Virus record (IMG/VR): IMGVR_UViG_3300046817_000630
Coordinates: 1 to 29,267 of that record
Length of the DNA stretch: 29,267 bases
Source: a virus
Taxonomy: Duplodnaviria; Caudoviricetes
Reading direction: 5' to 3' (one strand)
The first letter of the stretch is position 1. Each line of letters opens with the position of its first letter. Below are positions 1,590 through 29,267 of the stretch, piece by piece. A model generated the notes under the pieces. That model saw only the letters and a program-made list of their open reading frames with translations. It was not told where the DNA came from and made no database searches. Position numbers and translations under genes: made by a program.

Positions 1590-2819
1590 TTATTCGAGCC
1601 CGTGCTCACTGCGGGGTCTAGGCCGATATGTATCGGCGGTTGGATCATGGTCCAGGATATTGGATCTGATCGCGGTCTCTAGAACGCGTTGGATTTTGTC
1701 ACTTGGGACTTTGGTTTGGAGGAAGTTCCAGAGCCTAGCAGAGTGTATGTTCTGCTTGTTGCTCTTGATCCAGAGATTCCAAACAAACATATGCAGTTCT
1801 TGAATGATCTGCGAATCTGAGCGTTGGACCATTTCCTTGAAGATGTCTGGCATTGTTTGCTCTGCTTGGATGAGCCAATTCAATGCTCGATGGAAGTCCC
1901 CTAACGTGATATAAAGAGAATGACCGCCACTAGCAGCAGAAACAATACAGAGACGGAGAAGGTGAAGAATCCGGCGGCTGTTATAAGATTCGAGCCTCGA
2001 ATGTTCGGGCTCGGGCGGGAAGCCGGAGTCGGCCCAGGCCTGAACCGCGAACATTGCATCAGGTTGCCAATCAGCTTCGCCAAACGCATTGAGCAGGGAT
2101 TTGAGACCATCCAACAGGACTCCAAATTGGGTTTGGTTAGCTGTTACCTTATCAAAAAGTCTGATGTTAAATTTTTCCCCAGAATAAACCATGATCATAC
2201 GTGTCATGAAGCCCATTCCCCAAGCTTCCTCAGGTAGTAATGAGGCTAGATAAGCTGGCTGGGTTCCTGCGAGGATATTAATTTGAGGATTGATAGCATC
2301 AATTTTTCTATTTCCAGTTCGTCGGGATTCGCGGTAGTTGCTATCGTTATCGTAGATCGCGTTGAGGAAATTGAGGAACTCCAGGTCGTGTGCGGGAACG
2401 AGAACTCCAAACTCAGATGCGGCAATTTGAAGTGAATGGTATTCAATGAGCGTTCCATTTGGAGGAACAATACATCTCTTGGCCGCGTGGAGTTCATCGG
2501 CCAGGCTCGCTTTTGTGACAGAGTGGCTGGCTACGTGGAGATCCTTGGTCGCGTACCAGAGCGCGTTGACATGGCGGATCGCCTGGCTTTTGCCAGTCCC
2601 AGGCTTGCCAACCAACAGTGTATACAGGGTTGGAAACACCTGAGTCCCAGCACTCACGATGTAGACACGTCTTTCGAGTGCGCCCGCAACGCATGTTATC
2701 GCGCTCCACAAACGGAAGATTTCGGGGCTAGGTATGCCAGATGTGTAATCGAGAAAGTCATTGATCCAATCCTTATGAGCCAGCTGTAGCTTGGGAATGA
2801 TCTTCTCGATGACGGCCAT
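1590..2819 (-). CDS. DUF3987-like P-loop NTPase, putative replicative helicase
   Basis: Walker A GKPGTGKS, degenerate Walker B (QIAASEF), NILAGTQP and GFMTRM motifs. Directly downstream of the DNA polymerase. Confidence 0.7.
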   Translation of the reverse strand: MAVIEKIIPKLQLAHKDWINDFLDYTSGIPSPEIFRLWSAITCVAGALERRVYIVSAGTQVFPTLYTLLVGKPGTGKSQAIRHVNALWYATKDLHVASHSVTKASLADELHAAKRCIVPPNGTLIEYHSLQIAASEFGVLVPAHDLEFLNFLNAIYDNDSNYRESRRTGNRKIDAINPQINILAGTQPAYLASLLPEEAWGMGFMTRMIMVYSGEKFNIRLFDKVTANQTQFGVLLDGLKSLLNAFGEADWQPDAMFAVQAWADSGFPPEPEHSRLESYNSRRILHLLRLCIVSAASGGHSLYITLGDFHRALNWLIQAEQTMPDIFKEMVQRSDSQIIQELHMFVWNLWIKSNKQNIHSARLWNFLQTKVPSDKIQRVLETAIRSNILDHDPTADTYRPRPRSEHGLE

Positions 2820-4320
2820 CAACCTGCCCTCCCCATTTCACCAGCCCCATCGGGTTACCATCGGCATAGAGCTTGTGCGCTGGGTCTGCGTTGGCCCAGT
2901 TGTAGCCAATCTTGCATTCGGAAGGGATGGTTATGGTGCGGTTGTTGGCAGTGATGGGTATTCTGGTGAGGGCGAGGACATTGGTTAGGATATCTGATTC
3001 GGTGGTTGGATTGTCTGGGTACTGGAACACAATCGCGTCATGGACCTGGCCCAGGATCTGTACTCTAGGCTCATGTTTCCAGACACGCCAGAGGGCGCAG
3101 TTCAGAATGTCACCGACTACTGATTGGGGTTCGAAGGCGATGGCTTCGCGTAGGGTGGCATCATCTCCTGGCCGACCGTAGAAGATGCGCTTGCGGCCAA
3201 GGATAGTGGTCAGGGATTGATGCAGCAATAGCTCCCGGCCGACCCAGGCCTGCCAGTGCCTGATCCCTGGAAAGGCCCCACCTGGGGTGCCGATCGGGCC
3301 ACAATAACTGGCCTGGAACTGGGCCATAACCCGCTCCTCGACCTTCAGATGCCGGGCCATAGTTCGTGGAGTACCGAAATAATTAGTGCCGTGCCCGCCA
3401 CGCTTAGACATATCGCGATAAGAAAAGCCACGGTAGAAGAGCACATCAGCAAGGACTCGATCGGCTTTGGGTTCGCCGGTCCAGCCAAGTCCTGGCCAAA
3501 CGAGTCTGGCTGTGGTTGTGTGGAGGTCGCCGGATTCGCAAGCATCAAGGTAAGTGGGGTCGTTCGCCACACGCCAGACCAAGAGTCCCACGACTCTAGA
3601 CTCTGCTTGTTCCAAGTCCAGGTAACATAATTTCCATGCAGGGTCGGCCACAAACATTCGACGCAGCTCTGGGGTGATGTTTTGTAAGTTTGTCCCGCTA
3701 CCATCAGCACTACTTGAGGAGGACCAGCGTCCCGTCTCTGTACCTGCAATGTTATAACTGGTTCGCATTCGGCCATCATTTGATATCTCCGTTTCAAAAA
3801 CAGACAGTTTCTTTGAAGTCTCCCGAATGGCCAAGATTGTATTGATGATTGGACGGGCATAGAAATAGTCGTAGAGTTTTTCCAATGCTTCGCGATTGGT
3901 CGAGATGGTCCGAACGCCTTTGTCGCTTTTGTATTGGACTGGCAATCGCATTCGATCATAGAAGAATTCTTTCATTTGTTTGGGACTGTTGGCATTCAAG
4001 TCCCGGTCCCAAAATGCCTGCCCGAATGCATTGAGGATCTCAATCAACACCTGCTTGCGCTTGGATAATAGGGTCTTGCCGTTGGCCCGCTCGATTGGAT
4101 CAATGAGCCAACCGCGTTCCATTAGCTCCAATGCTGGCGCTTGCATCCCACGTTCAAATGAATAGATGAGCGCGTTCGATTGATCATTCTTCTGCTGCAG
4201 CTGCCTTTCGAGCGTTTCAAATATCTCAAACGTGAGACAACAATCCAATCCATTGTAAACCTGATGCTGCGTGTGCGCATCGAGGTTGGGCGAGAGGGTT
4301 GAGGTTTGGATCCTGCTCAT
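2773..4320 (-). CDS. Family A DNA polymerase, polymerase subunit (starts with the ExoIII motif)
   Basis: TETGRWSS, NLQNI, motif A DLEQAESR, motif B KRGGHGTNY, motif C VHDAI; N-terminal YNGLD. ATGA overlap with the upstream gene. Confidence 0.93.
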   Translation of the reverse strand: MSRIQTSTLSPNLDAHTQHQVYNGLDCCLTFEIFETLERQLQQKNDQSNALIYSFERGMQAPALELMERGWLIDPIERANGKTLLSKRKQVLIEILNAFGQAFWDRDLNANSPKQMKEFFYDRMRLPVQYKSDKGVRTISTNREALEKLYDYFYARPIINTILAIRETSKKLSVFETEISNDGRMRTSYNIAGTETGRWSSSSSADGSGTNLQNITPELRRMFVADPAWKLCYLDLEQAESRVVGLLVWRVANDPTYLDACESGDLHTTTARLVWPGLGWTGEPKADRVLADVLFYRGFSYRDMSKRGGHGTNYFGTPRTMARHLKVEERVMAQFQASYCGPIGTPGGAFPGIRHWQAWVGRELLLHQSLTTILGRKRIFYGRPGDDATLREAIAFEPQSVVGDILNCALWRVWKHEPRVQILGQVHDAIVFQYPDNPTTESDILTNVLALTRIPITANNRTITIPSECKIGYNWANADPAHKLYADGNPMGLVKWGGQVDGRHREDHSQATAGS

Positions 4321-4928
4321 CCCCATTGCTCCGCAATGGCATTGGCAATTCCCTTGAAAGTGAGTGATCTCTTGAAGGACCGAAGTGGTCCGGGCCCCAT
4401 CCGGAATATTGCCTGTTCTGGGTACTTGTTATGATGCGTGGGAACCAGCCTTGGCAAACCCTTCAACCACAAGCAGGTTGATTTGCTCTCAGGTTCCCCG
4501 AACATCCACGGGTGAATGATCTGGGTAGGCCCTCTTCCAACCAACTGCCTCCCATGCCCGTGCATGATCGGGTTTTCTATTGCAATCCTTTCTATCGGTG
4601 CATTCAACAAAGTTGCAAAGAATCCCGCTGCGTTTTTCATGGCCTCCCAGCGAATCGGGTTCCTTTTGTATCCGGTCTCGTATAGCCACCTGACCCCACT
4701 GTTACACAAGAATGTACACTCCGGATGAGCTATCATCATATCCCATCTGTTGCCGATGACATTCCTGCAATCATCTTTTATGTGAAACTCAGGAAATTGC
4801 TGGCACTCTGCATAGGGCTTTGGAATATCTTCCAAGCCCAGGATGTCGCAGGACCAAGCATTGTGGCCCTTGCGCCTGAATGCGTCCCGGACGCGCCCGG
4901 ATATTTCACACGCGATCAGGATGTTCAT
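4317..4928 (-). CDS. Short phage DNA cytosine-5 methyltransferase-like protein
   Basis: ILIACEISG SAM-binding start, AWSCD, catalytic-loop AHPECT, IENP motif. Confidence 0.72.
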   Translation of the reverse strand: MNILIACEISGRVRDAFRRKGHNAWSCDILGLEDIPKPYAECQQFPEFHIKDDCRNVIGNRWDMMIAHPECTFLCNSGVRWLYETGYKRNPIRWEAMKNAAGFFATLLNAPIERIAIENPIMHGHGRQLVGRGPTQIIHPWMFGEPESKSTCLWLKGLPRLVPTHHNKYPEQAIFRMGPGPLRSFKRSLTFKGIANAIAEQWG

Positions 4929-5974
4929 TCATCATCACTCTTCAATTGATCACTGCTGCGCGAGCGCATGATCTTCCATGCAGGTTCATTCGTATAAATC
5001 GAGCCCATAAATCCAAGCCCCTTCAAAAGCTCCGGGTGCATTGCATGATGTAACAACATAGTATCGTGGAGTGAATTGATAACTGAGAGTCCGGCCCTCC
5101 GAATGTATTGTAAATCGTACAGTCCGTTCTGAAATATCTTGGGGTTTGGCAACATCAATAATCGTTGGACCCATCGCCATGCCTCGACCTCTTCGATTGC
5201 GGAGCGCCAGAAACTCTTATCGCCCATTCGATGATCGACAAATGGTATGACAAGAGCAAGCGCGCGCGAAATTCCAAAGCCGATGCATGTAATTTGGCCT
5301 CTAGATGTTTCAATATCGATAGCAATTGCTTTTGAGTTTTTGGCTTGAGCGTGGAAGGCGGCAATAGTTTCGAAGTTGGGATTGATGATGATTTCCCTCT
5401 GGGGACGATTGATTTGCGCATGTTCGCTCTCGATTTTGGCCTTCATCAGGTCTGCAATGACCACTGGCCGGAGATCCCACTGGCGAAAAATCGCGGCGGG
5501 ATGATACGTAGGGAGTATTTTCCCATACGGACTGGCGACTATGGTTCCTCTGATCTTACTGATGTTGGTTTGTCTGAGAACTGCCCAGCAGGCTGTGTTT
5601 CCGAGTGCGACGATGAGGTTGGGGTGAACAGATTGTAGCTCACCTCTAAGCCGTTCCAACTCGGGACGAAAGTCGTCTCTAAGGAAACGACCCGGTGACA
5701 GTGCGGGCATTTCATTAATAATGTTGCCGTCATCTCTTGTGCCAAGGAAGTGCTCCAGTTTGTTATTGGGCGGGCGGGTCCAAAGCACATTGGTCTGATA
5801 ACACTGGCGTTTGTCGATCTCGGCAATCTTGCAGAGTTCATGCAGGAGTTGGCCAGATGAACCAACAAAGGGAATGCCAGCTATCTCTTCACTCTCGCCT
5901 GGGGCCTCGCCCAACAATACTATCTTGGCATCCTTGGGCCCGTACGAAGTGATACAAGGTTTGAATAAGGTCAA
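4925..5974 (-). CDS. Uracil-DNA glycosylase (family 4-like) fused to the N-terminal part of a DnaQ-like 3'-5' exonuclease; N-terminal subunit of the split PolA
   Basis: UDG motifs GEAPGESE, PFVG, TNV, TYHPAA; then ExoI AIDIETS, ExoII FQNGLYD and HDTMLL. Confidence 0.88.
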   Translation of the reverse strand: MTLFKPCITSYGPKDAKIVLLGEAPGESEEIAGIPFVGSSGQLLHELCKIAEIDKRQCYQTNVLWTRPPNNKLEHFLGTRDDGNIINEMPALSPGRFLRDDFRPELERLRGELQSVHPNLIVALGNTACWAVLRQTNISKIRGTIVASPYGKILPTYHPAAIFRQWDLRPVVIADLMKAKIESEHAQINRPQREIIINPNFETIAAFHAQAKNSKAIAIDIETSRGQITCIGFGISRALALVIPFVDHRMGDKSFWRSAIEEVEAWRWVQRLLMLPNPKIFQNGLYDLQYIRRAGLSVINSLHDTMLLHHAMHPELLKGLGFMGSIYTNEPAWKIMRSRSSDQLKSDDE

Positions 5975-16466: not shown

Positions 16467-16658
16467 TTTTCATTCTCCATTTCATTGGCGAAAATTTTGT
16501 ACCTGATCAGATTCTGGCGACATTGCTGCAAAATGCGCTGATTGCGCTCCTTGTCAGCTTGTGCTGTTTTTGCCAGATATTCGCGCATTTGGTCGTTCAT
16601 CTGATTTCTCCATTGTTTGAACACGCGCAATATACACCTAAAGCCAGCTCATTTTTCA
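16454..16658. repeat. 19-bp perfect direct repeat flanking the 45-aa gene
   Basis: AAAGCCAGCTCATTTTTCA at 16454-16472 and 16640-16658. Confidence 0.9.
16463..16600 (-). CDS. 45-aa protein (not in ORF track)
   Basis: MNDQMREYLAKTAQADKERNQRILQQCRQNLIRYKIFANEMENEK*; ATGGAG RBS. Confidence 0.6.
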   Translation of the reverse strand: MNDQMREYLAKTAQADKERNQRILQQCRQNLIRYKIFANEMENEK

Positions 16659-21041: not shown

Positions 21042-22708
21042 GTTCACAATTTCCATTGAGAGAGCAATTGGAAGGCAGACTGGCCGGTCTGCGCACGGAG
21101 CGATACTCATGGTGGACCCATTGGGCAGAGTTGGCCAGATTCATTCTCCCTCGTCGCTACCGATGGCTGATCACACCCAACCAGATGAATCGGGGTGCCA
21201 TGATCAATGGTGCCATAATCGATTCTACTGGTACGATCGCTGCTCGTGTGCTGGCATCTGGCATGATGAGCGGGATTACATCCCCTACACGACCCTGGTT
21301 TAATTTGACGCTCGAAGGGTATGACAAAGACGAAGTTAACTCGGTCAATATCTGGCTAACTGAGTGTCGCCGCCGCATGATGCGGGTTTTTCAAGAATCA
21401 AACTTTTATAACTGCATTGCGGTCTGCTATGCCGATCTGGCCGTCTTTGGAACGGCCCCAATGCTCATCTATGAGGACTTCGAAAATGTAATCTGGTGCT
21501 GCAACCCGTGCGCGGGCGAATACTACTGCGGCAACGACCAATATGGCATGGCCCATATCTTCTATCGCGAAATAACCCGAACCGTCTCACAGATGATAGA
21601 AGAGTGGCCGGGTAAGGTCTCACAGAGCGTCGAGAATCTGGCCAAGATGGGCGGAACGGGACTGGTCAAGGAAATCATTGTTTGCCATGCCATCCAGGCC
21701 AATGATGGCCAAGGTGGGATCAACAAAAAGTTCCCATGGGCAGAGTTCTATTGGGAGCGAGGTTCACCAACTGAGCAGGAGTTCCTCTCAAAGCGAGGCT
21801 TCCATGAGTGGCCCGGTATTGTACCGCGCTGGGATATATCGGGAAATGATGCGTACGGGCGGGGCCCAGGCATGGACGCGCTCGGGGATATCAAGCAATT
21901 ACAACAAGAAACGCGTCGAAAGGCCCAAGCCATCGATAAGCTGGCGAATCCTCCAATGGTTGCCGATGTGGAGCTTAAAAATGCTCCAGCATCAACTCTC
22001 CCCGGTGGCGTTACTTATATTTCTCGCAAAGATGGAGCGGGTTTCAAGCCAGCATATGAAAACTTCAGACCGCCGATCCAGGAGTTGATGGCCGACATTG
22101 CAGAGGTCCAGAAACGGATCAAGGGGATATTTTTCAACGACTTATTCCTGATGTTTCAAGAACTGCAGGCAGAACCTCGCTCGGCGGCTGCGGTTGATGC
22201 ACGGCGTGAGGAAAAGCTGGTAATGCTCGGGCCCGTCCTCGAACGCTTCCAGACCGAAGCTCTTGACCCCGCCATTGACCGCCTGTTCGGCATTATGATG
22301 CGAGGTGGTCTACTGCCCCCGGCTCCGCCAGAGATTCACGGCAAGCCCATCCAAGTCGAATACTCATCCATGTTGGCGGCAGCCCAGAGCGCAGCCAGTA
22401 CAGCTGCCATAGAACGTGTATTCCAACTCGTTGGCAACCTCGCAGCAATCCATCCAGAAGCCCTAGATGTCCCCAACTGGGACGCAAGTATTCAAGAGTA
22501 TAGTTCATTACTTGGCAATGATCCCAAGCTAATGAACACGCCAGAAGTCATTGCTGCCATGCGCGCCCAGAAGGCCCAAGCACAGAAGTTGCAATATCTG
22601 ACCGATGTTGGCCAGGGCGCAGCCAAGGCAGGCAAGACACTATCCGAGACTGATCTTGGCGGTGGCCAAAATGCATTGCAAGCTATGATCGGCGGAGCCC
22701 AACAATGA
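21038..22708 (+). CDS. Portal / head-tail connector (T7 gp8/BPP-1 type)
   Basis: IIDSTG...LASGMMSGITSPTRPWF, SNFY, FGTA, PRW...YGRGPGM, EEKLVMLGPVLER. Confidence 0.93.
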   Translation: MSSQFPLREQLEGRLAGLRTERYSWWTHWAELARFILPRRYRWLITPNQMNRGAMINGAIIDSTGTIAARVLASGMMSGITSPTRPWFNLTLEGYDKDEVNSVNIWLTECRRRMMRVFQESNFYNCIAVCYADLAVFGTAPMLIYEDFENVIWCCNPCAGEYYCGNDQYGMAHIFYREITRTVSQMIEEWPGKVSQSVENLAKMGGTGLVKEIIVCHAIQANDGQGGINKKFPWAEFYWERGSPTEQEFLSKRGFHEWPGIVPRWDISGNDAYGRGPGMDALGDIKQLQQETRRKAQAIDKLANPPMVADVELKNAPASTLPGGVTYISRKDGAGFKPAYENFRPPIQELMADIAEVQKRIKGIFFNDLFLMFQELQAEPRSAAAVDARREEKLVMLGPVLERFQTEALDPAIDRLFGIMMRGGLLPPAPPEIHGKPIQVEYSSMLAAAQSAASTAAIERVFQLVGNLAAIHPEALDVPNWDASIQEYSSLLGNDPKLMNTPEVIAAMRAQKAQAQKLQYLTDVGQGAAKAGKTLSETDLGGGQNALQAMIGGAQQ

Positions 22709-23358
22709 CCGATGTAATCCCCATCAAAAAAGAATGGCCCTTCATCTGTCTGGGTGTCCCCTGTGGCTCCATGTGCCACAGCGAATTCATGCAATCAATC
22801 TGGGCCATTGGCCGTCAATACCCTGGCAAACAGGGCCTCATCAAAGGTCACTCCTCCATCATTGTGAATGCCCGAAATCAAATCATTGAAGCCGCCCAAA
22901 TGTTAAAACCCGACTATATCTTGTTCCTCGACTCTGATATGACCTTCCCCCAAGACACACCAAAGCGGCTCCTGGCCCATGGGAAAGACATTGTGTGTGC
23001 TACTTACGTGCGCCGTGGTCCTCCCTTTGATTTACTGGGTCATAGCTCAACTCCTGATATTCGAACTGGTTTGGTCGAGATGACGCACATTCCAACGGGA
23101 TGTTTATTGGTAAAGACATCTGTTTTTGAGTGTTTAAAGAAGCCCTACTTCAGACTGGAGCCAGATGAAGAGGTTGGAATTACACATGGAGAGGATTTCA
23201 TCTTCACCCGCATGATGCTGGCGCATGGGCATTCGGTTTGGTGCGATCTCGATCTCTCAGAGGAGATTGGGCATATGGTTCAGTATGAATTGAAGCCAGC
23301 AGACGCTAGGCGCATGGCAGAGGCTAATGCTCCTGAAAAGGCCATTGTAAATGGCTGA
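22705..23358 (+). CDS. GT-A fold (GT2-like) glycosyltransferase
   Basis: ARNQI, LFLDSD (DxD), TGCLLVK, GEDFIF, terminal GH. Confidence 0.8.
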   Translation: MTDVIPIKKEWPFICLGVPCGSMCHSEFMQSIWAIGRQYPGKQGLIKGHSSIIVNARNQIIEAAQMLKPDYILFLDSDMTFPQDTPKRLLAHGKDIVCATYVRRGPPFDLLGHSSTPDIRTGLVEMTHIPTGCLLVKTSVFECLKKPYFRLEPDEEVGITHGEDFIFTRMMLAHGHSVWCDLDLSEEIGHMVQYELKPADARRMAEANAPEKAIVNG

Positions 23359-24306: not shown

Positions 24307-25374
24307 ATGGCCGTACTAGGCACGGGCGCGCTCACCTACGCCGATTGGGCGAAGCGCGTTGATGATGAAAATGGGCAGATGAAGATTGCCAGGATCGTAG
24401 AGATTCTGTCACAATCAAACGAAATCCTCTTGGACATGCTCGCAATCCAGGGGAATCTCGTTACAGGCCACAAGACCACCATTCGAACTGGCTTGCCCAC
24501 GGCAACTTGGCGCTTGCTCAACTATGGTATCGTTCCTACGAAGAGCACCACGGCTCAGATTGTCGATACGTGTGGCAATCTGGAAGCCGAATCTCAGCTC
24601 GATGTTGATGTTGCCAAACTCAATGGTGACTCAGCAGAGTTCAGACTCTCGGAGAGCCGTGCGTTCCTCGAAGGTATGAACCAACAGATGGCCTCAACCC
24701 TCATCTATGGCAGTACAGCAGTCAACCCAGAGCGGTTCACAGGCCTCGCTCCTCGATACAACACCGTGACCACAACCTCTGCCCTGACTGCCTACAATGT
24801 GATCGATGCTCAGGGCGTTGGCGCTGACAACACCTCGATCTGGGTTGTCACCTGGGGCGCGGACACAACCACATGCATCTTCCCCAAGGGTTCGAATGCG
24901 GGCCTCCAACACACCGACATGGGCAAACAACGTGTCCAAGACGTAACCCAGACCTTCGCCACCGGTGCCTACTTCTGGGCCTGGGTGGATCACTTCAAAT
25001 GGGAACTTGGCATGTGCGTCAGAGACTGGCGCTACAATGTTCGCATTTGCAATATTGACGTCTCGGATCTGTCGACTGTGAATGCGGCCAACATCATCAA
25101 TGCTCTGATTCGGGCCTTCAATAGACTCCCTACGACGAGCCCAATGCAAACGACGACCCAAACCTCTGATGCACCCTCGATCCAGGGTGCGATGGGCCGA
25201 ACGGTCATCTACTGCAACCGCACTGTGAAGACCTTCCTCCATCTACAGGCTGTGAACAAAACCAACGTCTTGCTTCAAATTGAGCAATTTGCTGGTCGTC
25301 CCGTGACTACCTTCCTTGGGATCCCGATCCGCACGGTTGATGCTATCACCAACGCCGAAGCACGGGTGACTTGA
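24307..25374 (+). CDS. Major capsid protein (Bbp17-like, HK97 fold)
   Basis: LTYADWAKR, TTIRTGLP, FTGLAPRY, VRDWRY, FLGIPIR...EARV. Confidence 0.92.
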   Translation: MAVLGTGALTYADWAKRVDDENGQMKIARIVEILSQSNEILLDMLAIQGNLVTGHKTTIRTGLPTATWRLLNYGIVPTKSTTAQIVDTCGNLEAESQLDVDVAKLNGDSAEFRLSESRAFLEGMNQQMASTLIYGSTAVNPERFTGLAPRYNTVTTTSALTAYNVIDAQGVGADNTSIWVVTWGADTTTCIFPKGSNAGLQHTDMGKQRVQDVTQTFATGAYFWAWVDHFKWELGMCVRDWRYNVRICNIDVSDLSTVNAANIINALIRAFNRLPTTSPMQTTTQTSDAPSIQGAMGRTVIYCNRTVKTFLHLQAVNKTNVLLQIEQFAGRPVTTFLGIPIRTVDAITNAEARVT

Positions 25375-25423: not shown

Positions 25424-25888
25424 ATGATCATGGACGGACTCCTTCTGTTCTCGTCGGCTCAAAACCTGACCACGGGAACCATCGCAAGCACAAACGTGAT
25501 TGACTTGCTCAATGCGCGCAACATGGGCGTTGGTGATGACCCGGCATTGAAGATTGCCTGCTTCATCACAACGGCCTTCACGACAACGGACTCTGGAACT
25601 CTGACAATCCAGGCTCAGGGCTCGACCGACAATTCAACATATACGGTATATGCTGAATCAAGGGCCTATGCTGCTGCTGAGCTGGTCGTGAATGCCAAGC
25701 TGTTCCCGATCGATTGGCCTGCCAACGGCCTCTGGAATAGCCTTGGTAATGATCCCCAGCCTCGCTATCTGCGCCTCGCCTACGTAATGGGCTCGCTGCA
25801 CTTCACGCCCGGTGCAGTAACCTCTGCACTCGTTCTCGACCGTCAGGACTCGATCAACTATCCTGCCGGTATCTACATCACCAACTAA
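25424..25888 (+). CDS. Bbp16-like capsid cement/decoration protein
   Basis: MIMDGLLLFS...STNVIDL...RYLRLAY; directly after the MCP. Confidence 0.8.
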   Translation: MIMDGLLLFSSAQNLTTGTIASTNVIDLLNARNMGVGDDPALKIACFITTAFTTTDSGTLTIQAQGSTDNSTYTVYAESRAYAAAELVVNAKLFPIDWPANGLWNSLGNDPQPRYLRLAYVMGSLHFTPGAVTSALVLDRQDSINYPAGIYITN

Positions 25889-25900
25889 GGAACAGAACCC

Positions 25901-26548
25901 ATGAAAAAACTTCTGCTCCTCTCCTCTGCCCTGGTTGGAGTGGCCCTCGTGGCCACTTCCATTCACGCACAGGTCAATACAGTTCCACAGGTCGGTGTGC
26001 TGTCCAACTATCAAGGCAAAACCACATACTCATCGGCATTCGTTGGACTCGTGCCAGTCACATCTGGAACCGATGTGATCTGTATCGCCGGTTCGGCGAC
26101 CAAAACTGTGAAACTTCAGAGTCTCAAGATCTCTGGAACCACAGCAACTGCAGTACAATCACTGCCAGTTGTTCTACTGAAACGAACGGTGGCTGATACA
26201 GGTGGAACGGCAGCCTCAACCACTGCCAACCCTGGCACGACGACTCAGATCATGAGCCGCTCGGCCACCAATGCAGCAGCCAGTGCCACACTCATCTCCT
26301 ATGTGGCCAATCCAACTATCACCGACACTGCCCCAACCTACTTGGATGCAGCTTCGTTGACCATGCCAGTAGTAACAACTGCAGCTATCATTGTGCCCTT
26401 GGTCTTCGACTATGCCAGAGACAATGCCAATCTATTGCAGCCACCAACCTTGACTGGAGCTGCAATGCAAATCTGCGCCAACATCCAGGGCGTTACAGTC
26501 ACTAATGCCTCTGTTTGGAATGGCTCGCTCACCTGGACTGAGGAATAG
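25901..26548 (+). CDS. Signal-peptide-bearing Thr-rich beta protein (decoration-like)
   Basis: MKKLLLLSSALVGVALVATSIHA|Q; 2 Cys; ends LTWTEE. Confidence 0.75.
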   Translation: MKKLLLLSSALVGVALVATSIHAQVNTVPQVGVLSNYQGKTTYSSAFVGLVPVTSGTDVICIAGSATKTVKLQSLKISGTTATAVQSLPVVLLKRTVADTGGTAASTTANPGTTTQIMSRSATNAAASATLISYVANPTITDTAPTYLDAASLTMPVVTTAAIIVPLVFDYARDNANLLQPPTLTGAAMQICANIQGVTVTNASVWNGSLTWTEE

Positions 26549-26553
26549 CGAAC

Positions 26554-26955
26554 ATGCAATATCGACTCGACGCTCAACACTACATCGATGATATGTTGCT
26601 GGAACCTGGAACCGTCATTGGAGATGATTCTGGCAGCATCGCCTATCGCTATGTGCAGGACACTGATGATGGCAGGGGTGGTGTGGCCAAAAAGGGTTCC
26701 CCGCGCCCGCCCTCACGACAGATGACCCCACTCGATGATGAGGCCAAAAAGTTGTACTCGGACTACTTTGGAACGACCGCGCCCGAACGCGATCCGACCA
26801 AGGCGATTCCAGTACAGGGTACGGGCTCAGAGGCCAAGGTTCTTCCGCCAGGCGCTCCAAGGCCTGGGCTCGATGATCACTACAAAAGACCCATGGTGAA
26901 TGAGCCAGACTCCAAACCCAAACCAATGTTCTCCCCGCCCGAAGACAAAAAGTAA
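26554..26955 (+). CDS. Hypothetical head-region protein
   Basis: YRL..HYIDD.LL..G and MTPLDDEA; no signal peptide. Confidence 0.7.
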   Translation: MQYRLDAQHYIDDMLLEPGTVIGDDSGSIAYRYVQDTDDGRGGVAKKGSPRPPSRQMTPLDDEAKKLYSDYFGTTAPERDPTKAIPVQGTGSEAKVLPPGAPRPGLDDHYKRPMVNEPDSKPKPMFSPPEDKK

Positions 26956-26966
26956 GGACCACGCTG

Positions 26967-28496
26967 ATGAAACTCAGGACATCGCTTATCATCGCATCTG
27001 GCCTTGTCCTGGGTGGCATTGGCCTCGCCCCATTGGTGGCTCAGGTCCTCCCACAACCTGGGCCGCCAGTTCCCATTGCATGTGCATACAATGCATCTCC
27101 AGTCACTCTGACTGATGGCCAAGCTGGCTGGGTCCAATGCACTAATGCGGGCAAAGTCCAAGTTGATGCATCAGTCACAGCAACTGCCTCAATCACTGGC
27201 TTTCCAGGTGCCAGTCCAACAACTGGTACACCAATCTCGGTAACGACGGGTGGCGTAACAGGAACATTGCCATCTGGTGCGGTTGTGGTTGCTTCTAATG
27301 TTGGGACCACCAATCTTGCCTATTGCAAACTGGGCGCGACTGCAACCACCAGTGATCAGCCATTGGCTCCTAATGGTGGCTGGTTTGCCTTTACGGTTGG
27401 TGGCGCTACACAACTGACTTGCATAACAGGAACATCTACAACTACTGTAAATATGGTTGGTGGGTCGGGCCTACCAACTGGAACGGGTGGTGGGGGTGGC
27501 GGTTCGTCGGGCGGTGGTGGCGCGATCACAGCCGCCTCAGGATCATATGCCTCGGGCGCGCTCTCATCAGGTTCGGTTGCTTCGGGCGCGTTCGCTTCTG
27601 GTGCTCTGGCATCCGGTTCGGTTGCTTCTGGCGCTATGGTTGATCTCGGCGCAGTTGCCGATGCAGCTTCCACAGCTGGCGGTACTGGAACTCTCTCAGC
27701 CAAACTACGATTGATGACCACACAATTGGGTAGTCTAACTTTGGCACAGGGCTCAACCACGAGCGGTCAAACGGGCAACCTTGCCATGGGTGCAGTTACA
27801 ACAGCTTCACCAAGCTACACAACTGCCCAATCCAGTCCCCTCAGTTTGGACACAACGGGTGCCTTGCGCGTTAATGTAACTGCTGGTGGTGCTGGTGGTG
27901 GTGCTGTCACAGTTGCCGATGGGGCTGATGTCACCCAAGGTGCCAATGCCGATGCAGCAGCAACAGCAGGCAGCACCGGAACCGTTTCGGCCAAACTCCG
28001 ATTGGTGACCTCACAGCTTGGCACGATCGCAACCAACACAGGCTCGGCCATTCCAGCTGGATCAGCGATCATTGGCAAAGTCAGTATTGATCAGACTACC
28101 CCAGGCACAACCAATGCCGTTCAAACAATCGCTGGCACGACGGGCGGCTCATCCACAACTGGAAACATTGCTGCCAACAACACCACAGCAGTCGTTGTAA
28201 AGGCCAGTGCCGGGACGCTCTATGGCGTTCAGATGTATGGCATTGGCTCTGCGCCAGCCTATTTGAAAATTTACAACGCCACATCTGCAACATGCGGGTC
28301 TGGTACTCCAGTCAAGCGTCTGATGATCCCAGCAGCCTCAACTGCTGCCAACGGTGCTGGCTCTAATATTTCGTTTGGCGATATCGGAATTGCCTTTGGA
28401 ACTGGCATCACCTACTGCGTCACTACCGGCATCACCGATGCCGACACGACAGCACCAGCCGCCTCGACGTTCCTTGTGAATCTGGATTGGAAGTGA
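26967..28496 (+). CDS. Signal-peptide-bearing Gly/Ala/Thr-rich fibre-like protein
   Basis: MKLRTSLIIASGLVLGGIGLAPLVA|Q; 6 Cys; internal repeats; C-terminal beta domain VKASAGTLYG...AYLKIYN. Confidence 0.8.
   Translation: MKLRTSLIIASGLVLGGIGLAPLVAQVLPQPGPPVPIACAYNASPVTLTDGQAGWVQCTNAGKVQVDASVTATASITGFPGASPTTGTPISVTTGGVTGTLPSGAVVVASNVGTTNLAYCKLGATATTSDQPLAPNGGWFAFTVGGATQLTCITGTSTTTVNMVGGSGLPTGTGGGGGGSSGGGGAITAASGSYASGALSSGSVASGAFASGALASGSVASGAMVDLGAVADAASTAGGTGTLSAKLRLMTTQLGSLTLAQGSTTSGQTGNLAMGAVTTASPSYTTAQSSPLSLDTTGALRVNVTAGGAGGGAVTVADGADVTQGANADAAATAGSTGTVSAKLRLVTSQLGTIATNTGSAIPAGSAIIGKVSIDQTTPGTTNAVQTIAGTTGGSSTTGNIAANNTTAVVVKASAGTLYGVQMYGIGSAPAYLKIYNATSATCGSGTPVKRLMIPAASTAANGAGSNISFGDIGIAFGTGITYCVTTGITDADTTAPAASTFLVNLDWK
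27534..28022 (+). repeat. Coding repeats: 7x pentapeptide [AS]SG[SA]x and 2x 28-aa unit
   Basis: Pentapeptides at 27534-27638; 28-aa units at 27648-27731 and 27939-28022 (22/28 aa identical). Confidence 0.85.
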
Positions 28497-29266
28497 TGCG
28501 CTACATTCTATCTGTAGCTCTGCTGATCGTTGGTATTCTCTGTCTTGAACAGAGGCCCCGCGCACAGTTATCTATGACTGGAGTTGGTGGGGGCTTCGGT
28601 GGAGCCGCTGCCTACCAAGGCCCCGGCGACATCATCCCCGGTGCAATAGCTTGGTGGGGTTTGCGCTGCTACACTGCAGCCTACACTGGAAATGTCGCAG
28701 ACATCTATTCGCCTTCAGATGCCCTACACACATTGCTTACGTGTTCAATAGGCGGTGGGATCAACGAAACCATCACCCCACTAGCAACAACCTGCGCAGT
28801 TAGCTGCACAGTCCAAACTCTCTATGATCAGGCTGGTCTTACTTCGTGTGATAATGGTGTGCCAGCAGAATGCGACGCGATCGAGGCTACAGAGGCAAAC
28901 CGGCCTACTCTTTCTCTATCTTGTGTGGGCGGTCGATATTGTATGCAAGGAAGTGGAAGTCAGGCTCTAAAAACGCCCGCTCTTGCCAGTCCTGCTTCTC
29001 AGCCAAACTTTGTAGCACAAGTAGTTGACCGTACGGGGAATTTTACAAGTACAAGCGGTGTCTTTGGCGATATCAATGGGCTGGCTGCTTTTGATTTTGC
29101 TAACAGTACAAATATGCTTCTACTATATGCTGGTGCTTCACTCACAGCAACAGCTGCAGACAGCACATGGCATACCGTACAGTTTACACTAAATGGAGGT
29201 TCATCCGAAATCATAGTAGATGGCGGAACTCCTACTACTGGAGCTGCAGGCGCAGGGGTAATGTCT
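28496..29266 (+). CDS. Signal-peptide-bearing ConA/LamG-like (arabinofuranosidase-B-like) protein, 3'-truncated (not in ORF track)
   Basis: Starts at the TGATG overlap and is open to the window end: MRYILSVALLIVGILCLEQRPRA|QLSMTGVGGG...YQGPGDI..AWWGLR..TLYDQ..WHTVQFTLNG..IIVDG; 8 Cys in the visible mature part. Confidence 0.78.
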   Translation, partial: MRYILSVALLIVGILCLEQRPRAQLSMTGVGGGFGGAAAYQGPGDIIPGAIAWWGLRCYTAAYTGNVADIYSPSDALHTLLTCSIGGGINETITPLATTCAVSCTVQTLYDQAGLTSCDNGVPAECDAIEATEANRPTLSLSCVGGRYCMQGSGSQALKTPALASPASQPNFVAQVVDRTGNFTSTSGVFGDINGLAAFDFANSTNMLLLYAGASLTATAADSTWHTVQFTLNGGSSEIIVDGGTPTTGAAGAGVMS

Positions 29267-29267
29267 G

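Follow-up and report, generated by a model that had tools for sequence, protein, structure and literature searches.

Predicted exported, cysteine-paired proteins encoded behind the cement gene of an uncultured epsilon15/BPP-1-like podovirus

Why should genes in the head-tail module of a tailed phage encode proteins with signal peptides? The assembly of tailed phages is taught as purely cytoplasmic and finished before lysis, and decoration and head-fiber proteins are usually made and folded in the cytoplasm, with no leader. The question is raised by the IMG/VR virus record IMGVR_UViG_3300046817_000630, whose whole length of 29,267 nucleotides is here called the window. Three of the four genes that follow the major capsid protein (MCP) and cement genes, designated A, C, and D, start with predicted Sec-type signals, and their products have even numbers of mature cysteines (Table 1). 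This feature is real, family-wide, and surprising, as it is unexpected for tailed phages. We propose that the particles of such phages come from two compartments, with an HK97-type head and a tail made in the cytoplasm and an outer coat of jelly-roll decorations, fibers, and lectins that would be exported by Sec (in some cases by the twin-arginine translocation [Tat] pathway), folded by Dsb enzymes, and fitted at lysis. The proposal would cover thousands of proteins of uncultured soil phages, in which ordinary fiber domains would repeatedly have gained a signal and a Cys pair, and as a whole we give it an even chance of being right.

Predicted signals and paired cysteines in the window and its relatives

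Signals were called with our own heuristic for the n-, h-, and c-regions, combined with family conservation. At the N termini of the products of A, C, and D, a basic n-region is followed by a hydrophobic segment without charges and by Ala immediately ahead of Gln, and no such leader is present in the B, MCP, cement, scaffold, portal, or terminase proteins. An initial annotation of the window had reported leaders on three of the four genes after MCP and cement and none on the flanking structural proteins; the open reading frames (ORFs) of A to D lie where it placed them, and the heuristic bears out both statements, with a reservation for D. The leader of D in the window fails the heuristic (atypical cleavage region, Pro at −3, charged c-region), and the D homologue in a sister locus, L002, has a canonical A-x-A site. 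The mature Cys counts of 2, 6, and 8 were also correctly stated (positions 61 and 192 in A; 39 and 58, 120 and 152, and 443 and 484 in C; eight residues in D). The window, which is a whole record, is identical over all stretches compared to the complete genome G001 (49,174 bp, with terminal repeats), which supplies the genes past the window end; in G001, D is 303 aa long and still has eight mature Cys. Within one genome, even Cys counts are weak evidence, because several signal-less proteins are even too, namely the portal (8), two tailspikes (10 and 12), the adaptor (4), and the nozzle (6).

Comparisons among relatives carry more weight. None of 127 nonredundant core head proteins (scaffold, cement, portal, terminase, MCP, and B) is signal-bearing by the heuristic, compared with 31 of 33 A orthologues; at the family level, the pattern exceeds chance. 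We identified 812 relatives of A among 3,070 candidates and counted conservation on the best 120. The heuristic is passed by 117 of these. In every one of the 120, positions 61 and 192 are Cys, and the mature protein has no others. At the cleavage site, Gln24 is found in 120 of the 120 sequences, Ala at −1 in 111, and Ala at −3 in 106. Ala-x-Ala followed by Gln is kept in a leader that is otherwise free to vary.

A profile search for A reached 3,938 clusters at 50% identity. In a set of more distant relatives (148 new rows, many of them kin), 136 rows span both Cys columns and the other 12 were dropped. Both Cys are present in 48 of the 60 signal-positive rows, neither in 12, and a single one in none, compared with 4, 46, and 26, respectively, of the 76 signal-negative rows. 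Whole-protein parity differs in the same direction, with 57 even, 3 zero, and 0 odd counts in signal-positive rows and 24 even, 23 zero, and 29 odd counts in signal-negative rows. In a fast tree of the A domain, rows with signal plus pair nest several times among signal-less ones (22 signal changes, 14 pair changes), and a repeated gain of the signal and the Cys pair by this domain is suggested.

The association extends beyond A. For the viral loci, with five unrelated phage types left out, our own script called 922 ORFs, which were reduced to 537 at 80% identity. Cleavage-based Cys counts of the signal-positive proteins encoded downstream are even in 90, odd in 10, and zero in 2 cases, compared with 55, 68, and 44 cases for signal-negative proteins (even:odd 90:10 versus 55:68, Fisher test, P = 4e−13, kinship not corrected). 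For the C-terminal tip of C, we used the best 120 of 198 matches, one of which is a truncated call of C itself. Of these, 109 are signal-positive. Both Cys are kept in 115 and lost as a pair in 4; the remaining sequence has a gap. Mature Cys numbers are even in 107 of the 109 signal-positive proteins, although their N-terminal halves differ.

When homologues are compared in this way, as the initial annotation had suggested, the Cys pair follows the signal in the distant A relatives, and even Cys counts go with it across the loci. Its claim that the proteins are exported and disulfide-paired is strongly supported as well: signal features persist through changes in the leader sequence, the Cys pairs do not vary, and where Cys are lost, both go at once. 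From these patterns we consider it very likely that A, C, and D are exported and folded with disulfides in the periplasm. Alternatively, the N termini could be hydrophobic assembly peptides or miscalled starts, and the proteins could fold in the cytoplasm and have their Cys oxidized by air after lysis. The heuristic nature of the calls, the atypical site of D, and the virion disulfides of other phages, described in the text available without reported signals, agree with that explanation. It is nevertheless very improbable in view of the signal properties retained where the sequence is not, the A-x-A motif followed by Gln, the 0 of 127 core proteins, the tracking of the signal by the Cys pair, and the existence of twin-arginine variants.

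Among 133 signal-bearing proteins, no transmembrane segment was found, and lipobox-like motifs occur in 2, both in relatives and both readable as signal peptidase I (SPase I) sites. Four have twin-arginine-like leaders, all of them cassette members in relatives (L008:9518-12109, L009:1434-2267, L013:2699-3733, and L036:12253-13110), and, judging by these leaders, some large fibers may be exported folded via Tat. The first residue after the predicted cleavage (a heuristic site) is Gln in 53 of the 133, from loci L001 to L075, which makes N-terminal cyclization of cassette proteins a possibility. A crude search for a mature N-terminal arm shared by other cassette proteins gave 22 loose matches in 103 and no clear motif.

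Predicted structures agree with the earlier description of these proteins as beta-rich and decoration-, fiber-, or lectin-like, though at a generic level of similarity (Z < 9). The model of A (mean predicted local distance difference test score, 89.7) consists of a leader helix, then an arm of lower certainty, and one jelly-roll domain, in which the strands of Cys61 and Cys192 would be neighbors because of the jelly-roll strand order. Its best structural neighbors are uncharacterized Caudovirales proteins (E = 8e−13, template modeling score 0.68). Among solved structures, A matches a nanovirus capsid protein (Z = 8.7, root mean square deviation [rmsd] 3.6, 130 residues aligned), the capsid of satellite tobacco necrosis virus (Z = 8.1, rmsd 4.4, 137 aligned), the Ena pilin (Z = 7.3, rmsd 5.0, 108 aligned), which is tied with unrelated jelly-rolls, the HFTV1 turret (Z = 7.0, rmsd 3.6, 105 aligned), and the KHP40 cement protein (Z = 6.8, rmsd 3.5, 112 aligned). 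The model of C has two confident beta domains, residues 81 to 170 and 393 to 509, and between them a poorly modeled shaft rich in Gly, Ala, Ser, and Thr. Matches of C to solved structures reach Z = 7.8 at most and include the STIV turret protein A223 (Z = 7.6, rmsd 3.7, 91 aligned) and the Bd2133 fiber tip (Z = 6.9, rmsd 3.5, 103 aligned); Foldseek gave no match of C in the PDB at E ≤ 0.001. On these models, A is predicted to be a single jelly-roll and C a mosaic fiber with two jelly-roll-type domains. The jelly-roll is a common fold and shows no function.

Pfam, PHROG, and NCBIfam hold no family for A, B, or C, and a sequence search of solved structures returned no match for the A profile, D, or F, a fiber gene past the window. 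The Atlas neighbors of A are unnamed viral clusters; DUF6143 came up at 0.92. Bcep43 gp01, which BFVD places among the structural neighbors of A, lacks a signal, contains a single Cys, and was rejected. D itself has no Pfam match at the cutoff (Laminin_G_2, E = 0.008, falls below it), and PF09206 (GH54) occurs in 40 to 48% of the members of its Atlas neighbors; the resemblance of D to ConA/LamG or GH54 proteins is a lead only. Among cultured phages (50,697 records for A, C, and D), we found no homologue of A, C, D, or the signal-less A of locus L004.

Table 1. Features of the cassette and its flanking genes (positions in the window)
Feature	Positions	Strand	Description
Major capsid protein, epsilon15 gp7/BPP-1 Bbp17 type	24307..25374	+	PF20911, E = 3e−132; 43% identity to the BPP-1 and 41% to the epsilon15 MCP; no signal
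Cement protein, Bbp16 type	25424..25888	+	PF21190, E = 1e−10; no signal, 1 Cys; defines the slot
Gene A, 215 aa	25901..26548	+	Predicted signal; conserved N-terminal arm (about 24-37); single jelly-roll; Cys61 and Cys192
Predicted Sec/SPase I signal of A, 23 aa	25901..25969	+	Cleavage before Gln24; modeled as helix 2-23
Cys61 of A	26081..26083	+	Strand 58-63; in 120/120 relatives
Cys192 of A	26474..26476	+	Strand 190-194; predicted partner of Cys61; in 120/120 relatives
Gene B, 133 aa	26554..26955	+	No signal, no Cys
Gene C, 509-aa mosaic fiber	26967..28496	+	Predicted 25-aa signal; Cys39/58 motif; beta domain 81-170 (Cys120/152); shaft; C-terminal jelly-roll 393-509 (Cys443/484)
C-terminal tip domain of C	28143..28493	+	Common to mosaic proteins, nearly all with a predicted signal
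Gene D, cut by the window end	28496..29267	+	ATG overlaps the stop of C; predicted 23-aa signal; eight mature Cys; ConA/LamG-like or GH54-like beta-sandwich

The slot behind cement and a possible virion role

If the proteins are exported, do they return to the particle? Their position bears on this question. Among 79 A loci examined, 7 lack a cement match, and in 69 of the 72 with cement in view A lies directly behind it; one signal-bearing gene intervenes in the other three. A search anchored on cement instead (best 80 of 512 loci, of which 6 were too short, leaving 74) showed that in 16 of the 51 loci without A another signal-bearing gene fills the slot. The interval from cement to the first tail gene can contain as many as seven inserted signal-bearing genes, and the cassette is hypervariable. 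In many relatives without the cassette, a B-like gene adjoins cement, and in BcepC6B and SR18 the interval contains one small gene. Because A is optional, its slot is fixed, and B-like genes follow cement in cassette-free relatives, the cassette is an accessory insertion with a preferred slot, and B is the ancestral cytoplasmic gene that adjoins cement where the cassette is absent. An alignment of cement proteins revealed no feature common to A-bearing phages that the cement of the window also has.

Several of the domains also occur in signal-less fibers. The A domain forms the C-terminal tip of many long signal-less proteins; in L004, the domain stands a few genes behind MCP and lacks both a signal and the first Cys, and in L079 it is found directly after the MCP gene, with a signal. 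In the sister genome G002, the slot of F is occupied by two signal-less tailspikes. F, which has a signal and Cys88 and Cys124, shares a 135-residue domain (46% identity) with one of these tailspikes, in which both Cys are absent, and this domain matches PHROG tail-fiber and virion-structural families. The domain sharing and the slot swap favor a virion role without proving it. Signal-bearing A-domain genes are found in unrelated phage types too (L076:1481-2092, L078:9266-10432, and L079:8999-10414), some beside lysis-like genes and some in tail modules.

From the gene slot, the domains shared with signal-less virion fibers, and the lack of membrane anchors, we lean toward the view that the cassette products bind virions at lysis. 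The optional cassette would consist of A, C, and D plus two genes just past the window and would encode outer head decoration and fibers. It would be expressed late, together with the head genes. Sec export and SPase I cleavage before Gln would expose the conserved N-terminal arm, host Dsb enzymes would oxidize the Cys pairs (the host enzymes are assumed because no phage Dsb gene was seen), and soluble oligomers would be stored in the periplasm; these three steps, taken jointly, we hold with high confidence. The step that follows is only slightly favored: once the inner membrane has been breached by the holin, or else following release, the proteins would dock on capsids via their N-terminal arms or on cytoplasmic adaptors. 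The phage would thereby acquire additional appendages that are hardened by disulfides, bind carbohydrate, and promote attachment or soil persistence, besides its ordinary signal-less tail fiber and tailspikes. Addition to finished particles has precedents, as T4 Hoc and Soc, lambda gpD, and the P22 tailspike bind finished particles in vitro.

The same signals and disulfides would be expected if the products never became part of the virion and left the lysing cell as free adhesins, as enzymes, or as fibers or lattices that assemble by themselves. Such products could act as decoys, could bind or loosen the polysaccharide of the matrix, or could keep progeny close to hosts, and A could be a pilin-like jelly-roll with an N-terminal connector. 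We regard this explanation, including the roles it assigns, as rather unlikely. It agrees with the optional, hypervariable nature of the cassette, with fold neighbors of A that include the Ena pilin and satellite-virus capsids besides cement and turret proteins, with the resemblance of D to GH54/ConA proteins, and with the GDSL or Vps10-like domains that some cassette members carry in relatives. A free product, however, would have no need of a fixed slot directly behind cement, and the exchange with a signal-less tailspike in G002 also speaks against it. Moreover, all 120 close relatives of A lack Cys in the arm, which sets it apart from the Ena connector; some distant relatives have a Cys pair flanking the arm.

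Even less probable is an action on the envelope of the infected or carrier cell, in which the products would be periplasmic or surface adhesins and would mask receptors or exclude superinfection. Membrane-anchored proteins of lysogenic conversion or exclusion, such as those of the Bor/Lom/Cor type, have a lipobox or a transmembrane anchor, and the signal-bearing proteins studied here have no transmembrane segment and no convincing lipobox. The genes are co-oriented and closely spaced within a head-tail run, no A relative was found in GTDB genomes by one pattern scan, and the lack of an integrase among the tested ORFs of this genome leaves little room for a role on the surface of a lysogen. On the other side, both cultured carriers checked, BcepC6B and PBR31, have integrases, and the Bdellovibrio MAT fibers show that signal-bearing, phage-fiber-like proteins can be bacterial surface adhesins, as far as the consulted part of that paper describes them (PMC10769870).

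Several observations weigh against a virion coat matured in the periplasm. The signals rest on a heuristic, and the profile behind the distant A set was built from signal-bearing proteins and hence favors them. A kinship-aware test of signal against Cys pair was underpowered (4 independent pairs on supported branches, P = 0.5). The C tip set gives no true contrast, because its 11 signal-negative rows all keep both Cys and most look like miscalled starts. Fold matches are generic (best Z of 8.7 for A and 7.8 for C) and are not specific to decoration proteins. Many relatives do without the cassette: A is behind cement in only 23 of the 74 cement loci, and the two nonsister loci with the closest cement (59%) go straight to B, with no signal-bearing ORF within 4 kb. 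The phage is already equipped with signal-less appendages, namely two tailspikes and a tail fiber. Finally, export is no evident requirement for disulfides, because those in the virions of 7-7-1 and crAss001 are described without signal peptides in the text available. A complex prediction for a cement dimer with mature A scored 0.00 against a mark of 0.32 and is evidence neither way.

Phage identity, gene order, and further genes

Portal (PF12236), MCP (PF20911), and cement (PF21190) matches, together with MCP identities to epsilon15/BPP-1 kin, assign the phage by sequence to the epsilon15/BPP-1-like podoviruses, with a complete genome of about 49 kb. Its MCP is 41 to 53% identical to those of epsilon15, BPP-1, BcepC6B, and kin, and the core gene order of adaptor, nozzle, and core protein also matches this type. 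Its genome includes a gene for DNA polymerase A. Searches of sets of 34 and 15 ORFs and a crude motif scan, with small ORFs only partly covered, revealed no integrase. In G001, MCP and cement are followed by A (signal), B, C (signal), D (signal), two signal-less pectate-lyase-like tailspikes, a 134-aa signal-less gene, fiber F (611 aa, signal, six Cys), a 77-aa signal-bearing coiled-coil gene, adaptor, nozzle, core proteins, a conventional signal-less tail fiber, and a GH25 lysin. The five predicted exported genes are thus interleaved with ordinary cytoplasmic appendage genes.

Past the window (L001:11891-13962), fiber F is followed by the 77-aa coiled-coil gene, and a 97-aa signal-less gene likewise stands behind the cytoplasmic tail fiber; the 77-aa product is possibly an exported chaperone. 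A small signal-less beta protein nearly always precedes a large signal-bearing fiber, in the family of L001:11490-11894 and in a family of 116 to 133 aa (L006:13132-13482), and is a candidate cytoplasmic adaptor for the exported fiber. In L020, L068, and L072, a further signal-bearing, even-Cys protein of 520 to 650 aa is encoded directly upstream of the large terminase gene.

Other genes and repeats stand apart from the cassette. Between portal and scaffold, at window positions 22705-23358, lies a glycosyltransferase-2-like gene (weak PF00535, phrog_1574) that is present in few related loci and whose product could modify virion or exported proteins. A core protein of 1,742 aa (L082:6557-11785) matches LPD22 and an ART-PolyVal-like domain with scores close to the Pfam cutoff, and the version in the sister genome is shorter. 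At window positions 16597-16639, a stretch of about 33 to 43 bp, with a second copy nearby in G001 and G002, lies in an AT-richer, gene-poor zone between divergent gene blocks and is perhaps a regulatory element or an origin. At 2773-5974, DNA polymerase A is separate from a gene for uracil-DNA glycosylase plus a 3′-5′ exonuclease, with a methyltransferase-like gene between them. Scans for promoters and terminators gave only shuffle-level scores.

Over half of the sampled words of the stretch occur in three rhizosphere metagenomes (all from 2023, maybe from one campaign, with five possible source runs left out; runs with small word shares were not counted), and no RNA data set containing it is listed. 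Six GTDB relatives of the lysin, at 39 to 49% identity, come from three Alphaproteobacteria, one unplaced member of Pseudomonadota, and two Thermoanaerobaculia, and are a weak guide to the host.

Comparison with known systems

The head module is that of epsilon15, BPP-1, and BcepC6B, with portal, scaffold, MCP, cement, a small gene, adaptor, nozzle, core proteins, and tail fiber. It differs from those of BcepC6B and Caulobacter phage SR18 in that up to seven signal-bearing genes are inserted where these phages have the small gene alone. With jelly-roll cement, turret, and head-fiber proteins (KHP40 7dou, HFTV1 8qpg, STIV A223 6bo3, Pam1 7eel, and crAss001 gp21 and gp29), A shares a single jelly-roll, a gene beside MCP, and a short N-terminal arm. 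The match is generic (Z of 6 to 8), however, and A, C, and D differ from the usual leaderless, cytoplasmic decoration protein in their predicted signals and invariant Cys pairs. The signals lower the likelihood that these are ordinary decoration proteins, not that they work like decorations.

Disulfides harden virion parts in other tailed phages, among which Milano is reportedly placed, from a reference title only. In crAss001, the head fibers dock by residues 1 to 38 and 1 to 58, a documented precedent for docking by short N-terminal arms that we count in favor of virion binding; its tail has disulfides, and the word "signal" is absent from the main text (PMC10172136). For 7-7-1, a capsid disulfide network is described, and signal peptides are unmentioned in the part consulted (PMC12796354). 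Many of the bonds described there for these two phages link core subunits, whereas the pairs of the present proteins seem to lie within single domains and to be restricted to signal-bearing accessory proteins. In the available text on Bdellovibrio MATs, all 21 fibers follow a signal peptide (PMC10769870), and they share with C and F the architecture of a signal followed by mosaic, phage-fiber-like adhesin domains; the tip of C resembles that of the MAT Bd2133 at a generic level. As described there, MATs differ in that they have chromosomal genes, are located on the cell surface, and carry behind the signal a conserved domain of about 130 aa, while the genes studied here lie in the virion module of a complete phage genome.

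Signal-like N termini are also present in two proteins of cultured phages, BcepC6B gp19 (annotated as a tail fiber) and Xanthomonas phage PBR31 gp35 (a putative structural protein). Both are fibers rich in Ala, Gly, Ser, and Thr, with 4 Cys in gp19 and 2 mature Cys plus 1 in the leader in gp35. Unlike the cassette, each is a single gene behind a tail spike or fiber, with no head-side cassette, and no homology to A, C, or D was found. The main text of the PBR31 paper neither names gp35 nor discusses its signal (PMC10975493). The consulted parts of papers on phiCbK (PMC3556154) and RcGTA (PMC5026251) held nothing relevant, and in the open literature, judged mostly by title and start of abstract and with subscription journals and supplements outside the scope, we found no description of export of tailed-phage virion parts.

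If our proposal is correct, an unrecognized last maturation step takes place at lysis, host Sec, Tat, and Dsb become factors in the host range and stability of phages, and the annotation of phage genes with signal peptides would change. The pattern is common, as the A domain occurs in thousands of clusters and 60 of 136 sampled rows have a signal, and the question is testable in a cultured phage that carries such a gene, as BcepC6B carries gp19.

Two further systems mark what is familiar and what is not. The Ena pilin has Cys in its N-terminal connector for bonds between subunits, unlike the Cys-free arm of A. The pIII protein of filamentous phages is a virion protein that is exported by Sec and oxidized in the periplasm, but it is membrane-anchored, and Ff phages assemble at the membrane without lysis; in the phage studied here, the proteins are predicted to be soluble and the HK97-type head would be built in the cytoplasm. 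As parts, then, the products of the cassette are variants of known decoration and fiber proteins; as a route, the periplasmic maturation of tailed-phage virion parts would be new.

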